DNA of 41,252 nucleotides from a virus. Location: the IMG/VR virus record IMGVR_UViG_3300045988_175715; one strand, 5' to 3'. The notes beneath the pieces were generated by a model. It ran no database searches and was not told the origin of the DNA. It was given only the letters and a program-made list of their open reading frames with translations. This document shows positions 1 through 41,252 of the stretch, one piece after another; the stretch's first letter is position 1, and the number at the start of each line of letters is the position of its first letter. Both the position numbers and the translations under genes were made by a program.

Positions 1-119
1 ATGTTCGTTAGCGCCGTGTCAGGCAACACCCTGACTGTCGTTCGTGGCTTTGCTGAATCGACGGCCGCCGCAGTAACTCAGAATGACGAACTGCTTTACT
101 TGGGTACTGCCAAAAAAGA
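1..119. repeat. 119-bp exact direct repeat with 41134..41252. This is a terminal overlap of a circular or terminally redundant genome, most likely produced by circular-contig assembly.
   Basis: The first 119 bases (atgttcgttagcgccgtgtcaggcaac...ctgccaaaaaaga) are identical to the last 119 bases of the window. The repeat falls inside one continuous capsid ORF. Confidence 0.9.
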
Positions 120-855
120 GGGTTCGTTGGCGCCGAATCCTAAGTACCGCCGTGGCGTTCCTCGTATGAATTACAGCCAGATTTTCCGCAATGGCTGGGG
201 CACGACTCGTACGGCTGCGCACATTAAGTTCATCACTGGAAACAAGGCAACGGAGAACAAAGAAGATGCCGTGTCAATGCACGCGCAGGACATCGAAATG
301 GCTTTGCTGCTTGGCCGCAAATCTCTCAATCAGGTTGACGGCTCCGAAGTGCTGAGCACGATGGACGGCTTGATGAGCATTGTTAAGAATAACACTGCAT
401 TGGCCGCCGCTGCAACTTTGGACTCAATTCAGGAATGGATGTACAGTAACTTCGAGACCTGCCCTGAGGGCGTTCCTAATGAACGTGTCGTTATGACCTC
501 TCTCAATGTACTTTATATTCTCAACAAGCTCATTAGAGATGCCGGCAGCTCGTATTACCCGATTGGGACTGCGACTAAAGTATACGGCCTCGACGTGTAC
601 GCACTTCAGTTGCCGGGAATGCAGGAAGTTAAGATTCTTGCTCACCCGCTGTTCAGCCAGACTGAGTCGCTTAGCAAGTCGATGCTGATTTACCACCCGG
701 GCTTGATTAAGATTGGTTATATGACCGACGCCGAAATCAAGGATGCGACTCCGGTAGGTATGGACGGTCAGGCCAACGTAATTACCTCTGAGCTCACTCT
801 TGAGTATGCAGATGAAAATACCGGAGGCGTTCTCAGTAACATCTATCTGGAGTAA
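1..855 (+). CDS. Major capsid protein, 3' portion. It belongs to the same gene as 40837..41252.
   Basis: 284-codon ORF with no ribosome-binding site of its own. The gene order terminase-portal-scaffold-capsid supports the call. No capsid motif was verified. Confidence 0.6.
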   Translation: MFVSAVSGNTLTVVRGFAESTAAAVTQNDELLYLGTAKKEGSLAPNPKYRRGVPRMNYSQIFRNGWGTTRTAAHIKFITGNKATENKEDAVSMHAQDIEMALLLGRKSLNQVDGSEVLSTMDGLMSIVKNNTALAAAATLDSIQEWMYSNFETCPEGVPNERVVMTSLNVLYILNKLIRDAGSSYYPIGTATKVYGLDVYALQLPGMQEVKILAHPLFSQTESLSKSMLIYHPGLIKIGYMTDAEIKDATPVGMDGQANVITSELTLEYADENTGGVLSNIYLE

Positions 856-18632: not shown

Positions 18633-18747
18633 GGCACCGGGGTGCCCAGTGGGCACAAAACAAAGGAATTAAATTGAAAGGAGGATAAAGAAAATTAGAG
18701 TACAAAAATAGGGTGGAATCTTAATTGATTCCACCCTTTCTTTTTGC
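18632..18747. terminator. Convergent, bidirectional terminator region between the two gene blocks
   Basis: gggcaccggggtgccc forms one hairpin. gggtggaatcttaattgattccaccc forms a second, flanked by an A-tract upstream and by tttctttttg downstream. It works as an intrinsic terminator on both strands. Confidence 0.65.
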
Positions 18748-18781
18748 TTCCTTAACTTGCGTTAAGTTGATACGATTTAAT

Positions 18782-30236: not shown

Positions 30237-31994
30237 TCAAGCTGGCGCTCCTCGAAGCCACTTGTTAAGGAAGTCCTCAATGTAAGCGGCAGTTTCGCTG
30301 TCTGAGTTACTTGAGATAAGATTCTCAATTTTCTCCCTATCCGAAGAGCCGGGCAGCTGGCGGTTTTTGAGCTTGGCTAAGCCACTCTTGTTGTAAATTA
30401 CCCAAGCAAAGTCAGAAGCTCGAGTCAAGGCGGTGTAGGCGTATTCGTTGTTAATTGAGTTGCCGTTTTTCCAGTCAAGTAAATTGATGATGCACCGCTT
30501 GTACGTTGAGCCCTGTGCTTTGTAGCAGGTGATGGCGTTGGCGAGGAGCAAGTTACTTATCTCGCCTATAGTGCTCAAGCTGATTTGGCGTAAAGTGCCA
30601 TAGATGTCAATGAACTCTATAGTTAAAGTATGACTTGCTTTCTTTGAGAAGAAACCCTCTTCATCGGCGCTGTTTTGTGAATCCCCTGACGAGGCGCTCT
30701 GTTGGGCTGACTGCTCAATTAAGTTGTCGAGTTCATCAGGACTCAGTTCGCTGGGCTGCGCTTCGCTTCGCATAATGTCCTTATTCATCGGCGAAGCCCC
30801 TGCCGGCGCCACCACGTCTTCATTAAGTTGCATCTCAATTATGTGGCCCGTTGTTCCGTTAATGTAGCCGTCTTCGTAATTATTCTTCGTGAACATCACG
30901 TTGTCGCCGACGCCGAATAACTTAATTGCCACGCCGCAAAGCACTGCTTGCTTAGTTACGCCGAGATACTTGTTAAGCCGCTGATTGAGAATCTCTTGTC
31001 CAGTAGCTCCGACGTTGGTCGGGGTGATAATGCAGTCCTCTTGTTCATTGAAGCGCAGGTGGTATTTCTCGTTAATTAACTCAATAATCCGATAGAGGTC
31101 AAGGTAGTTTTCGGCCTCAATGAACTTAACGTTCTTGAACTCCTTTGCTTTGATGGCCTGTTGCAGAGCAAGTAAGTTGGCTGACTTGAAGAGGTGAGCT
31201 GCTTGGACGATGTCGTTTCCATCAGCTTGCCGGTGCACAGTGGTAAGATAATTGAGGGAGCAGCCGGAGTGCGCCCCAAAGTAAGCTATGCTTGTCTTGC
31301 CGATGACTGGCTGAAGCTGGTTGATGTCACCTACGAGAATTAACTTATGCAAGCTATGCAGGTCGAGGGCTGCGAGGGTTTGAAGCATAAGTTCGTTGGA
31401 TACCATTGACACTTCGTCGATAATCAGGACCTTTGTGTCAATTCGCTTGTTGGCTGCATTAAAGGTTGGCACAAAGCGCCGGCTTAGGCGGTACCCGCAG
31501 GGCTTACTTGGGTCTGGTATCTCAATTAACTCAGGCACAAATTGAAGCCACTTGTGCAGTGTAAGGCACTGGGGAATGAAGGGTGCGAGCGCTGGGTCTG
31601 ACTTAATTGACTTGATGATGTTAAGCACCGCCTTACCCGTAAACGCGCAGAGGAAGATGCTTGAGGCATCGAACTTCGTTAGCAGCTCCTGCAAAACAGC
31701 CTTCAATGTAAAGGTTTTCCCAGTGCCGGCGGCTCCAGTCAGGATACTTAATTGACTCGAACAGATGTTGCGCACCGCCGATTGCTGGCTTGCATCGAGA
31801 GCATTGTTAAGACAATTAAATTCTGAAGTTGCTTGTGCATCAGTGTCAATTAAGTTAGTTGCCGGTGAAGTTGTCGGTGAAGGCATTGTTTGTGTAGCGT
31901 CAATGGAGTTAGCTTGTTTCAACGGTGAAGGCGCTTGCGCCAGAGCCGATTGAAGCGAGGCTGAGGCAATTAAGTCAGCTAGTGAAATGGGCAT
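30237..31994 (-). CDS. SF1 helicase of the Dda/RecD type
   Basis: Walker A LTGAAGTGKTFT and Walker B LIIDEVSM. CYKAQGSTYKR matches RecD motif V/VI. The N-terminus and one internal insert are low in complexity. Confidence 0.7.
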   Translation of the reverse strand: MPISLADLIASASLQSALAQAPSPLKQANSIDATQTMPSPTTSPATNLIDTDAQATSEFNCLNNALDASQQSAVRNICSSQLSILTGAAGTGKTFTLKAVLQELLTKFDASSIFLCAFTGKAVLNIIKSIKSDPALAPFIPQCLTLHKWLQFVPELIEIPDPSKPCGYRLSRRFVPTFNAANKRIDTKVLIIDEVSMVSNELMLQTLAALDLHSLHKLILVGDINQLQPVIGKTSIAYFGAHSGCSLNYLTTVHRQADGNDIVQAAHLFKSANLLALQQAIKAKEFKNVKFIEAENYLDLYRIIELINEKYHLRFNEQEDCIITPTNVGATGQEILNQRLNKYLGVTKQAVLCGVAIKLFGVGDNVMFTKNNYEDGYINGTTGHIIEMQLNEDVVAPAGASPMNKDIMRSEAQPSELSPDELDNLIEQSAQQSASSGDSQNSADEEGFFSKKASHTLTIEFIDIYGTLRQISLSTIGEISNLLLANAITCYKAQGSTYKRCIINLLDWKNGNSINNEYAYTALTRASDFAWVIYNKSGLAKLKNRQLPGSSDREKIENLISSNSDSETAAYIEDFLNKWLRGAPA

Positions 31995-32233
31995 TTGGTT
32001 ATCCTCTCTGTTTAAGCGGCCTTGCGGCCGATGTTAATTAAGTCGTTAAGGTGCCACAAGGCAGCAGATGGTCGAAGACAAGTAAGTTAAATGTTTCGGT
32101 GTAAAGCACTGGGCGAACGACGAAGGCAAGTTAATTGAGTTTGCCGAAGCGAGCCGTTAGGCGAGCCCTGCTGTCAAGAAAAAAGTGTTAATTGAGCTCA
32201 AAAAACCACTTCGTAGGAAAAATCGTAACGCAC

Positions 32234-32320
32234 GTCCAGTCGGTAATTAAGTTAAAAGTTGGTCAATGTACTCGGATTTTGAATACCTTGAGCAAAAAAT
32301 AACTTAATTACCGACTGGAC
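32234..32320. repeat. Perfect 20-bp inverted repeat with a 47-nt spacer. It could form a large stem-loop or act as a protein-binding site.
   Basis: gtccagtcggtaattaagtt (32234-32253) is the exact reverse complement of aacttaattaccgactggac (32301-32320). Iteron-like repeats tagacaaaa x2 and the inverted repeat ttgcac/gtgcaa follow at 32340-32400. Confidence 0.8.
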
Positions 32321-32458
32321 AGCCCAGTAATTTCAAAGTTAGACAAAATTTGCACCATTCTAGACAAAAATTTTCCATCTAAATTGAGTGCAAATTTGGG
32401 AGTTAAGTAACTTGTTATGTTAAGTAAGCTGTAAAGCCGAAGCTGAAGCGAAGCAGGC

Positions 32459-33109
32459 TTAAAGGTCCAAGTCGTTGTCAATTAAGTCTGCCATCTTAAG
32501 CACCTTCTGGGAAAAACTAGCTTCGTCGGTGGTAACCGACAGAGCTTTAATGAACATCTTTAAGTTAGTTTTTTGTGCTTGAACCTGCTTGGCTCGCTGT
32601 TTACGCCGCTCAATTAACTCTCTTTCCGCTAAGCTAGCTCGGTGCTCGGCGCGTGCACGTAATCGGGCTCTTTGTTCCGCTTCAAACTGCTTGATTCGCA
32701 AGCTTCGATTAGCCGTTTCGGTGGTTAGTTTGTCAATTAAGTTCGATAGAATAGCCGGGGCTGTTTGCGGGTTTTCACTCAATTTAGGTTCATTTACGCC
32801 GCTGGCGGCCGAATCTGCTAACAATTTAATGTAGTCAATGATAGTCAAGCGGGGCAAGTGTTGCAAAACAGCAGAATAACCTGATCGGATTTTATCAGCG
32901 GTGTCGATTGAGCAATCAATTAAGGTAAACAAGCCAAGCAAGGCGGATTTTTCGGGCGGTAAATCAGCAAGTGTAACAATATGACAATCGGTGATGACAT
33001 ATTCAGCGAGGGCGGAAAAATCGGTAAGGGTAAATTGAGATAGCGTTTTAAGCCGGGGTTTTTGAAAAGCGTTTAGATTGTAATAGATGGTTGTGTTTAA
33101 GTTTGTCAT
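32459..33109 (-). CDS. Early protein of 216 aa with a basic helix and an acidic ...DNDLDL C-terminus
   Basis: ORF with ribosome-binding site AAGGA. Confidence 0.45.
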   Translation of the reverse strand: MTNLNTTIYYNLNAFQKPRLKTLSQFTLTDFSALAEYVITDCHIVTLADLPPEKSALLGLFTLIDCSIDTADKIRSGYSAVLQHLPRLTIIDYIKLLADSAASGVNEPKLSENPQTAPAILSNLIDKLTTETANRSLRIKQFEAEQRARLRARAEHRASLAERELIERRKQRAKQVQAQKTNLKMFIKALSVTTDEASFSQKVLKMADLIDNDLDL

Positions 33110-33216
33110 TTCATTGAATCCTTAATGTGATTGTGTGTGATTGTAATGTGATAGTTTAATTAAGTGATAGTATTTAGTTAGATATTACTAGTAAAGGTTG
33201 TAGCTTAGAGCAAGAA

Positions 33217-33240
33217 AGAGGGGCTCAAGCAAGCCCCTCT
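33217..33240 (-). terminator. Intrinsic terminator or attenuator on the minus strand
   Basis: agaggggct-caagca-agcccctct has a perfect 9-bp stem. It is followed on the minus strand by uuucuugcucu. Confidence 0.5.
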
Positions 33241-33256
33241 AATCGTTAGCAAGCAA

Positions 33257-34000
33257 TTAGATGTCTAAGTCATCTTCATCAATACTTGTTTCAACCTTAC
33301 GGTCAATTGCTTTTGCCGCAAGCGCAACAGCGTATCCGATATAGTCATCAGGCGTAAAAGTTACCCCGTGTGCAAAATTAACCGCATTAGGTGATTGCTT
33401 TTCACAATGCCATTTAATCAACGCACGGATATAATCAGCAACAGCAACGCTCTTACCTTTTACTTGAGTTTGGCCTAAAATCAAATTTGCTGTTTGCAAG
33501 TCAGCTAAAAACGTCTTAATTGTCTTCTCATTAATCAAGCTAGCTTTTGCCGGCATGTTGGCTTTTAAGCTAACTACCAAAGCCTTAACCAGGGCATTGA
33601 AAGGTTTCGACAAGGGATTCGCTTGAGCGTTGCCGCCGTTCTGCGGCGTGAGTATGTCGACAATATTATTGAGGTTAGGCAGGGTTAAAAGCTTGCGGAT
33701 GTAGTTACTTAAAAAGTACTTTTCCACAAACTCACGGCAAATGTCATTAAGTCCAGCGACTTCCATAACGTCCGGAATATTTGTATACAATACATCGTAT
33801 TTGCCCTGCTTATCTTTTATCAAGCGGCAAGATAATTGACGGTTGGAAAATCCATCAATAACCCTAACAGCGACGCTTTTAGCCGGTTCACCGGCAACAG
33901 CGGCAACTAGGTTACCATTGTCATCGGCGGTTACCTTAACCGCCTCACTAGCGCCGATTTTATTAAGTGCTTGTAAAAATTCTTCCGTTTCCATTTTCAA
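33257..34000 (-). CDS. Early protein of 247 aa with an acidic ...DEDDLDI C-terminus
   Basis: ORF with ribosome-binding site AAAGGA. Confidence 0.45.
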   Translation of the reverse strand: MKMETEEFLQALNKIGASEAVKVTADDNGNLVAAVAGEPAKSVAVRVIDGFSNRQLSCRLIKDKQGKYDVLYTNIPDVMEVAGLNDICREFVEKYFLSNYIRKLLTLPNLNNIVDILTPQNGGNAQANPLSKPFNALVKALVVSLKANMPAKASLINEKTIKTFLADLQTANLILGQTQVKGKSVAVADYIRALIKWHCEKQSPNAVNFAHGVTFTPDDYIGYAVALAAKAIDRKVETSIDEDDLDI

Positions 34001-34437: not shown

Positions 34438-34472
34438 CTTCTTTCCTTTCTCAGTTTGTTTAATATAAGGGT

Positions 34473-34501
34473 ATTTTACAGGACTTTGCTTTTATTGTCA
34501 A
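34473..34501 (-). promoter_or_regulatory. Leftward early sigma70 promoter. TTGACA, 17-nt spacer, TAAAAT.
   Basis: Minus strand reads tttgTTGACAataaaagcaaagtcctgTAAAATaccc, about 35 nt upstream of the 34437 start. Confidence 0.7.
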
Positions 34502-34941
34502 ACAAAAACTACATTAGAATACCAAAAAATTTTGCCTTGTGCAAAAGGGGCTATAGCACCCCAAAGACAAGTGAAGGGCTGCGGCGTATATAAATGTACC
34601 CTCAGCAAATTCGCAAGAAAATTGGCATTTCCAGCCGGCTGATGCTTAATTGACACGTGAATCTGCATTAACTGCGTTAGCAGCTTCGAGGGCCGGTTTC
34701 CAGTTGGGTGCTAATTAGCTTCACAAGTCAATTAACTCCAAAGTGGTCAGAGCGGCTTGCCGCGAAACTCGAGTAACCGGCTTAACCGGACTTCGCTTGA
34801 AGCTAATGAACCTTTGAGGCCGCTTTCTGGTTGTGAAGCTAATTGACTTCGGCTGGTCAGCCGCTGCTTGTCAGCGCCTCGAATTACCAGAAGTAGTTGC
34901 TTAATAGTATATTGACTATAGTAATTGCAGTAGCTGCCCTG

Positions 34942-34970
34942 TTGACATTTGCTGGATTATTTGGTAAGCT
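34942..34970 (+). promoter_or_regulatory. Rightward sigma70-like promoter. TTGACA, 17-nt spacer, TAAGCT.
   Basis: ttgacatttgctggattatttggtaagct shares the TTGACATTT...ATTATTTGGTA architecture with the promoter at 10023. The -10 element is weaker. Confidence 0.5.
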
Positions 34971-34994
34971 AGCTAAAATAGGAGGAATCAAGCA

Positions 34995-40836: not shown

Positions 40837-41252
40837 ATGATTCCAGGAATCTTTTCATCTCAGGGAGGTATCAATGCCGAGCGGCTTGATAGCTTCAATA
40901 GTAAATTGTTCCGGTCCCAGCTGGCCGGTACTGCCCCGATATTCTCATTGAGTTCGGGTGCCGCTCAGTTTCAGCTGACTTCGAAAATCCACTACTGGTT
41001 CATGAAGCAGCCGTATAGCTCGAAGTTAATTGCCTCGGCGGCAGCAAACAACTCGGCAACTTCCATCACTGTGGACAAAGGTGCTGTGGTTGAGCCGTCT
41101 TCGGTGATTATGAACACTAAGACTAATGAATATATGTTCGTTAGCGCCGTGTCAGGCAACACCCTGACTGTCGTTCGTGGCTTTGCTGAATCGACGGCCG
41201 CCGCAGTAACTCAGAATGACGAACTGCTTTACTTGGGTACTGCCAAAAAAGA
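40837..41252 (+). CDS. Major capsid protein, 5' portion. It continues in frame across the circular junction into 1..855; the whole gene is about 383 aa.
   Basis: ATG at 40837 is preceded by AAGGAG. The reading frame is open to the window end. 41134 minus 40837 is 297 nt, so this portion is in frame with the ORF at 1..855. It sits directly after portal and scaffold, and a strong terminator follows the gene cluster. Confidence 0.6.
   Translation, partial: MIPGIFSSQGGINAERLDSFNSKLFRSQLAGTAPIFSLSSGAAQFQLTSKIHYWFMKQPYSSKLIASAAANNSATSITVDKGAVVEPSSVIMNTKTNEYMFVSAVSGNTLTVVRGFAESTAAAVTQNDELLYLGTAKK

Follow-up and report, generated by a model that had tools for sequence, protein, structure and literature searches.

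The window analysed here, the full 41,252 nucleotides (nt) of IMG/VR virus record IMGVR_UViG_3300045988_175715, is a complete circular assembly of a phage genome of ~41.1 kb, with ends (1–119 and 41134–41252) that are identical over 119 bp. Two genes of its early/replication arm, both on the minus strand, are separated by a 464-nt intercistronic spacer (31995–32458, minus strand) that runs from the stop codon (TAA, 32459–32461) of an open reading frame (ORF) for a 216-amino-acid (aa) protein (32459–33109) to the start codon (ATG, 31992–31994) of a helicase gene (30237–31994). A preliminary description of this DNA, made from the letters alone, had placed a non-coding gap here and read it as a replication origin or a large RNA hairpin. 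The gap is confirmed as such, and its core would most likely be a folded RNA within the operon messenger rather than a replication origin. The phage belongs to a family that is very common in human-gut metagenomes, has no cultured relative and carries mostly unannotated genes, and a structured non-coding element in the middle of the replication operon is a rare pointer to how the family organises its expression and replication.

The locus was compared among contigs carrying the helicase (16 from IMG/VR and 19 from ENA, helicase identity 83–97%), which yielded an alignment of 27 distinct versions of the gap, namely the window and 26 relatives. The gap is non-coding in all of them, contrary to the possibility raised earlier that relatives might code here; relatives with enough flanking sequence have a gap of 357–508 nt before the helicase with no ORF of at least 80 aa, and independent gene calls on three further contigs place nothing within it. 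Two short candidates were rejected: a 36-aa plus-strand ORF is interrupted by stop codons in relatives L003, L004, L007 and L010, and a small minus-strand ORF with an ATG is shifted out of frame by 1-nt insertions or deletions in relatives. As a whole, the gap folds better than its shuffles as sense RNA (z-score, z = -7.6) and as antisense RNA (z = -5.0).

Conservation is concentrated in an AT-rich island of ~240 nt (32170–32410, minus strand; 33–36% GC vs 45% for the genome). Identity to nine relatives reaches 0.87–0.89 in the island, compared with 0.47–0.59 at 31801–32200 and 0.71 at 32401–32500. Per site, the island diverges by 0.05–0.10 in most relatives and by 0.17–0.26 in three divergent ones, whereas fourfold-degenerate sites of the helicase diverge by 0.14–0.34, so that the island changes at about one third of the rate of those sites. 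The island is accordingly under purifying selection, and the alignments mark it as the functional core of the gap. The island is present once per genome.

Every one of the 27 versions folds into the same two hairpins, P1 and P2. P2 (32234–32320, minus strand) is an 87-nt hairpin whose lower stem of 21 bp is separated by a 4×4 internal loop from an upper stem with interruptions. The inverted repeat of 20 perfectly matched bp that had first drawn attention to the gap lies exactly at 32234–32253 and 32301–32320, where it forms this lower stem. It extends to 40-nt arms with 83% complementarity, and no other inverted repeat in the window is as long. The folding predictions proposed for it bear out its strength, at -45.5 kcal/mol as RNA (z = -11) and -25 to -28 kcal/mol as a DNA hairpin (z = -9 to -10). 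Absence from close homologues had been named as a possible objection to the repeat; it is present in all 27 versions. The perfect 20/20 pairing is specific to the window, most relatives having one to three U·G wobbles in the stem, and all relatives essentially retain a 15-bp core (TCGGTAATTARGTTA / TAACTTAATTACCGA; 32300–32314 / 32240–32254), a few of them with a single mismatch. The two arms evolve differently: the 3' arm, TTAATTACCGACTG, is invariant in the 27 versions, whereas the 5' arm varies mostly through U·G and G·U wobbles. In most relatives the 5' arm reads GUUCAG…UAAUUAGG opposite the invariant 3' arm, and these wobbles would be A·C mismatches on the other strand. P2 is more stable on the sense strand in 22 of the 27 versions (mean -39.0 vs -33.6 kcal/mol), and two of its pairs have changed on both sides.

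P1 (32346–32397, minus strand) is a nearly continuous helix of ~23–25 bp that is interrupted by a single A·A mismatch or bulge and includes several G·U pairs. Its outer stem is the repeat AAATTTGCAC / GTGCAAATTT (32346–55 / 32388–97), which had been noted as a ttgcac/gtgcaa inverted repeat and in fact matches at 10 of 10 positions. As sense RNA, P1 folds with -19.9 kcal/mol (z = -4.4), compared with -13.0 kcal/mol for the antisense strand and only about -9 kcal/mol for DNA; across the versions, the sense strand is the more stable in 27 of 27 (mean -24.6 vs -15.5 kcal/mol). When the three divergent sequences are left out of the count, two of its pairs are G·U throughout, and four further ones are G·U in some sequences and Watson–Crick in others. 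The lineage represented by L012, L015 and L137 carries 18 substitutions and 4 deleted bases in P1, which there reads GUACUCAC…GUGAGUAC in place of UUGCACUC…GGGUGCAA, yet retains a fold of -20.5 kcal/mol. Simulations with the same number of random changes give -8.7 ± 3.3 kcal/mol, and only 0.2% of trials reach the observed stability (p = 0.002). For P2 of this L012-type lineage, the simulation gives p = 0.02. P1 does not have the form of an intrinsic terminator: AUUUUUG follows it, but the stem is long and AU-rich. A promoter of the Bacteroidetes type (TTTG / TAnnTTTG) in P1 was likewise rejected for its misfitting spacing, and is further opposed by the strong Shine–Dalgarno sites of the phage and its early promoter with canonical -35 and extended -10 elements.

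Downstream of P2 in the sense of transcription, the island continues into a conserved 3' tail of 62 nt (32172–32233, minus strand), which contains invariant columns and ends in the invariant AATTAACACTTTTTTCTTGACA. The tail is conserved like the hairpins, yet it has no stable fold (z = +0.33 against shuffles). A weak candidate helix, P3 (32187–32229, minus strand), shows changes from UU/GG to CC/GG and is mismatched in most sequences, and it was rejected as a terminator on account of this weakness. The run of six U residues at 32179–32184 has no stable stem before it and is thus not an intrinsic terminator. A sigma-70 promoter at the invariant TTGACA of the island's end was discarded, no -10 element being found in any variant, as were the long-range helices GGGCUGU/ACAGCC and UGUC/GACA that might have closed the domain, which show only breaks or invariant columns.

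Over all proposed pairs of the alignment, 237 cells hold G·U and 42 hold A·C, and the relatives keep the stems largely by G·U wobbles, which form pairs on the gene-sense (minus) strand alone. This bias, together with the retention of P1 despite its turnover, favours a cis-acting RNA structure in the intercistronic messenger RNA (mRNA). We place the probability that the core of the gap (32170–32410) is a sense-strand folded RNA element of the intercistronic leader of the replication operon at roughly 45%. Of the two readings offered by the preliminary description, the large RNA hairpin has gained support, from the sense-strand stability, the G·U bias and the retention of a P1 that is poor as DNA, whereas the origin has gained nothing beyond AT-richness, uniqueness and the proximity of replication genes.

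A simple scan of the minus strand of the gap for sigma-70 promoters and terminators finds neither. A moderate promoter-like site, TTTACT-17-TACTAT, would serve the upstream gene and lies past a strong terminator (33240–33217). With these features, transcription through the gap from the upstream gene would be the simplest model. The gap would then act as the intercistronic leader of an operon of replication genes, its 240-nt core folding on the minus strand into two long, near-continuous helices followed by a conserved single-stranded tail. Such an element would most likely serve as a cis-acting post- or co-transcriptional signal (processing, stability or attenuation) that uncouples the helicase and the replication genes downstream of it from the expression of the upstream early gene. 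If so, it would mark the switch from early to replication genes.

RNase III, which is specific for double strands, cuts helices of about two turns in polycistronic phage mRNAs. P1 (~23–25 bp) and the lower stem of P2 (21 bp) have the helix length (~20–22 bp, on the transcribed strand) that suits this enzyme. RNase III could thus cut the two helices, and the small hairpin that precedes the helicase Shine–Dalgarno site might cap and stabilise the new 5' end; processing by RNase III specifically is doubtful, however, and attenuation or anti-termination at the boundary between early and replication genes would be a close alternative that fits equally well. Hairpins processed by RNase III in the early RNA of phage SP82 in Bacillus belong to the same class as the R-sites of T7. 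Antitermination is exemplified by the nut sites of lambda and the put sites of HK022, which are RNAs of processive antitermination or attenuation. Like them, the element has a pair of conserved stem-loops, situated in the leader that separates early genes from those next in time; unlike them, it has no detected intrinsic terminator downstream in the gap, no sequence similarity to them and no identified partner protein. An idealised substrate of RNase III measures 22 bp, and sites of this kind are present in most T7 transcripts (PMC3867540). The window's element resembles the T7 R-sites in its long RNA helices of about two turns, in its place in an intercistronic gap of an early or middle operon and in the flanking small hairpins that could stabilise the products. 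It differs in that it occurs at one locus per genome rather than many, and that one arm and the 62-nt tail are strongly conserved in sequence. The element thus resembles RNase III sites, leader and antitermination hairpins and transcribed origins in part, and can be filed under none of them.

Several observations weigh against a folded RNA in the operon messenger. Covariation is not significant, since 93.0% of the cells are paired compared with 92.8% in column shuffles; changes on both sides of a pair occur in only four cells, at two pairs, and the covariation term of RNAalifold is near zero. The sequences are too similar and too interrelated to settle the matter of covariation. In the window itself, neither strand gives a more stable P2 than the other, the six basal P2 pairs are broken in six versions (L008, L010-type and L012-type), and in the random-mutation test P2 of the L010-type is preserved no better than by chance (p = 0.26). 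No other long hairpin of the RNase III kind is found in the genome, unlike T7. Structure alone also leaves the invariant 3' arm of P2 and the unstructured 62-nt tail unexplained; their sequence would seem to be read by something, whether by a protein, through an alternative pairing or at the level of the DNA. Finally, G·T mismatches are tolerated in single-stranded DNA as well, and the strand bias is for that reason no strict proof of RNA. Long imperfect palindromes active on one strand only are known, for instance, from rolling-circle plasmids and single-stranded DNA phages, as single-strand origins (sso) and primosome assembly sites. They tolerate G·T wobbles, which would likewise yield a strand bias such as that of the present element. 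There are differences as well: the window is a 41-kb double-stranded DNA phage with PolA and a DUF3987 protein, and has no rolling-circle Rep and no conserved sso motifs.

The unexplained sequence conservation is one of the points in favour of a phage lytic origin. Here, P2 and perhaps P1 would either be extruded, forming hairpins or a cruciform, or present inverted half-sites to an initiator; the invariant, T-rich tail would be the element that unwinds, and transcription through the region might prime or activate replication, as in the lactococcal Ceduovirus origin. We consider an origin unlikely, although several properties of the island suit it. The element is unique in the genome and lies within the replication module next to the helicase, its low GC content (33–36%) agrees with an origin without being specific to one, the invariant arm and unstructured tail are conserved at the level of sequence in a way that an RNA fold does not account for, and P2 is also a strong DNA hairpin. 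Transcribed, structured, non-coding origins are also found in phages, namely in Ceduovirus (transcript PE1-T), whose origin is a non-coding region of several hundred bp without ribosome-binding site or ORF that is conserved within the lineage and whose RNA structure is thought to be important (PMC7150918). The present gap is alike in being non-coding over several hundred bp, without an ORF, conserved in its lineage and structured. However, the Ceduovirus origin lies between divergent early and late modules with two flanking promoters, whereas the gap lies inside a unidirectional operon with no detectable promoter; by this analogy, the divergent early/late junction of the window (34438–34994) would be at least as natural a site.

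Other expected marks of an origin are missing from the gap. The tandem tagacaaaa repeats, or iterons, of the preliminary description could not be substantiated: instead of an array there are just two copies of the 9-mer TTTTGTCTA (32361–32369 and 32340–32348, minus strand), 21 nt apart, of which the first lies in the 3' strand of P1 and the second forms its invariant tail, and Tandem Repeats Finder (TRF) reports nothing in the gap. The first copy is not conserved, becoming TTTCTGTCTGG in the L012-type lineage, and the window holds no excess of the 9-mer (11 matches vs 16 expected). The gap contains no DnaA box (TTWTNCACA), and no initiator gene is recognised beside it. An inflection of GC skew, also suggested as a sign of an origin, is not seen either, for the cumulative skew climbs across the whole window with no extremum or turn at 32 kb, which is a weak test for phages. 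Phasing of T-tracts, as in bent DNA, is not significant (coherence 0.62, 7 tracts). P1 is poor as DNA, its non-Watson–Crick positions being A·C mismatches on the other strand, and the wobble pattern indicates one strand rather than duplex DNA. Were the origin real, replicons could be built with it, and metagenomic coverage could be read for replication activity.

The limits of the island bear on another possibility, that of an independent gene for a small non-coding RNA, in which P1, P2 and the tail would form a stable RNA of ~230 nt that acts in trans on targets of the host or the phage, or is diced to small RNAs. Conservation begins just before P1 and stops abruptly past the run of six U residues, much like the end of an RNA gene, and the conserved single-stranded tail could be a seed or protein-binding region. 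In Rfam, P2 weakly resembles only microRNA precursors, on account of its shape; a microRNA-sized RNA has reportedly been found to come from a hairpin precursor in phage Φ24B. Against this, there is no promoter-like site upstream of P1, no stable terminator hairpin precedes the U-run, where the candidate helices are disrupted in several relatives, no Rfam family matches, and no target could be proposed. A trans-acting RNA is accordingly distinctly unlikely.

Both arms of P2 had been noted to carry TAATTAAG, which is indeed present in each but does not single out the locus, since AATTAAGT occurs 59 times in the window compared with 2.2 times expected. The wider motif is a 10-bp palindrome, STYAATTRAS (for example GTTAATTAAC, CTTAATTAAG and GTCAATTGAC), that occurs 83 times in the window vs 0.96 expected from dinucleotide shuffles (for instance at 1459, 3048, 16712, 23056, 32033, 32130, 32187 and 39306). 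Its density is 2.5 sites per kb in loci of the phage family and 0.006 per kb in unrelated viral loci. Within genes, the palindrome occupies the sole stop-free frame, and codon choice is bent toward it, 84 of 133 Leu-Ile dipeptides being encoded as TTA-ATT when 19 are expected. Intergenic DNA holds its core hexamer at about twice the density, and its sites are more conserved than background 10-mers (0.61 vs 0.42; p about 0.003). The list of sites shows no strand bias, and a literature search for the word returned nothing relevant. A site for a DNA-binding protein, a modification target and a priming site are all possibilities for its role.

The gap itself might be a cluster of such sites in double-stranded DNA, an operator or nucleation region for the reader of the AATT-centred palindrome, with the hairpins as by-products of inverted sites. 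Three exact STYAATTRAS sites lie in the gap and near-matches occur in both P2 arms, the copies at both ends of the island and in both arms are invariant, and a palindrome that is ~86-fold over-represented and shaped by codon choice suggests that something reads it. The motif is, however, spread genome-wide at ~2 per kb and does not point to this locus; P1, which provides the best evidence of structural selection, holds no copy; and binding sites do not predict the G·U bias, all of which makes a binding-site cluster improbable. Little credence is likewise given to a broader proposal, in which the island would be the hub (origin or nucleation site) of a DNA-level system built on STYAATTRAS and read by a phage protein for replication, condensation or protection, the invariant copies at the island ends and in the P2 arms forming, jointly with the hairpins, a high-affinity entry point. 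To a specialist, a folded RNA of this kind would be familiar and only moderately surprising, and the genome-wide palindrome would be the more unusual of the two.

The element is restricted to its lineage. A 22-nt invariant stretch is found only in the same phage family, and where the invariant 15-mer turns up elsewhere in IMG/VR, it does so by chance, without the 5' partner arm. Searches for more distant relatives in IMG/VR and in genome and metagenome scans return only helicases of at least 83% or at most 39% identity, with no intermediates, and three extra contigs are merely recombinants of known variants. Rfam gives no match at gathering score in the window and only chance-level ones (E of at least 2.8) within 31900–32600, and ARAGORN finds no tRNA or tmRNA in the window. 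The element is thus found in one phage family only, without a counterpart in Rfam, as a lineage-restricted structured element of a familiar general kind.

The flanks of the island are hypervariable. The 5' flank (32411–32458, minus strand) folds no better than its shuffles (z = +0.9) and holds a micro-repeat, GCTTCG/CTTCAG/CTTCGG, at 32436–32454. The triple (G)CTTCRG repeat of the preliminary description is therefore visible, but it falls below the TRF threshold and lies in this hypervariable flank, where the number and sequence of its units vary among relatives through insertions and deletions, whole units and unrelated sequence. The 3' flank (31995–32169, minus strand) varies by insertions, deletions and lineage-specific tandem duplications, and as a whole it too folds no better than shuffles. 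It ends in the small hairpin CGGCC-GCAA-GGCCG (32017–32030, minus strand), ~10 nt upstream of the helicase Shine–Dalgarno site GAGAGGA (32002–32008, minus strand), and most variants have a hairpin of differing sequence in the same place. The sense strand of the flanks is enriched in GNRA, UNCG and UMAC tetraloops (23 vs 4), but this was dropped from the evidence, since neither flank folds better than its shuffles and the antisense strand folds at least as well there. The tandem duplications of the 3' flank, which fall in the region corresponding to ~32017–32100 of the window, are threefold in each case: GGCCACAA in L005 (3940–3985), CGCTTCAACAT in L014 (columns 560–600 of alignment A1) and AACGTAGCTTC in L132 (at its start). 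They suggest replication slippage at small hairpin-forming units.

The helicase downstream of the gap is of the SF1 RecD/Dda-like type (PHROG 325 at 1e-51; Pfam AAA_19 and AAA_30). Its length ranges from 547 to 613 aa across the family, and its N-terminal part (codons 1 to ~65; 31800–31994) is of low complexity and hypervariable, with an identity of 0.58–0.59 among relatives and a 12-nt tandem repeat at 31857–31882. The 216-aa protein upstream is predicted to have a basic long helix and an acidic C-terminal tail. Neither this protein nor the neighbouring 247-aa protein matches a family in PHROG or Pfam, all listed homologues of the 216-aa protein belong to the same phage family, and its AlphaFold (AF2) model was set aside as poor (pLDDT 56). 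Acidic C-termini recur among the early proteins (…KMADLIDNDLDL and …DEDDLDI before the stop codon; 32459–32490 and 33257–33280), the helicase N-terminus (31970–31994) reads MPISLADLIA…, and DLID peptides are encoded by the palindrome GACTTAATTGAC.

Contigs of ~41 kb from relatives end unusually often within 1–2 kb upstream of the helicase. The mapped ends fall at 33129–33219 and at 32186, 32090 and 32666 (L001, L006–L008, L126, L129, L132, L134, L142 and L153), several of them in the intergenic region 33110–33256, right after the terminator hairpin or inside CA-rich repeats. A true genome terminus near the locus was rejected: the ends lie at differing nucleotides, within repeats or next to a hairpin, and are put down to assembly breaks.

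The rest of the genome is organised in two arms. The plus strand carries structural and packaging genes, including those for the major head protein and the large terminase; the ORF at 1..855 (major head protein) probably represents the end part of a gene spanning the circular junction. The minus strand from 34437 down to 18782 forms the early/replication arm, with genes for a family-A DNA polymerase (PolA), a Sak4-like ATPase, a PD-(D/E)XK nuclease, the SF1 helicase and a DUF3987 helicase/primase-like protein. Expression signals are of the bacterial type, with strong Shine–Dalgarno sites at 28 of 33 genes and an early promoter, TTGACA-17-TGnTAAAAT (34501–34473, minus strand). The family comes from human-gut metagenomes (ENA contigs), where it is represented by hundreds of protein variants and dozens of near-complete contigs of ~41 kb. 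GenBank phages have zero nucleotide match to the window, its polymerase is at most ~24% identical to those of cultured phages, and a host search found no close relative among 185,579 species-representative bacterial genomes.

The two arms diverge at a non-coding junction of 557 nt (34438–34994), which separates the early (minus) from the late (plus) genes and holds the early promoter. Just upstream of that promoter, the minus strand has a terminator-like hairpin, GGGGTGCTATAGCCCC followed by TTTTG, and a 19-nt inverted repeat that carries the palindrome lies within the junction at 34646–34664 / 34717–34735. Identity among relatives is 0.66–0.86 in the junction vs 0.43–0.53 in the adjoining early genes, and the junction shows no unusual degree of structure (z about -1.5). 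At the convergence of the plus and minus arms, a 22-nt inverted repeat at 18699–18748 is flanked by runs of A and of T (AAAAATAGGGTGGAATC…GATTCCACCCTTTCTTTTT) and has the look of a bidirectional intrinsic terminator.

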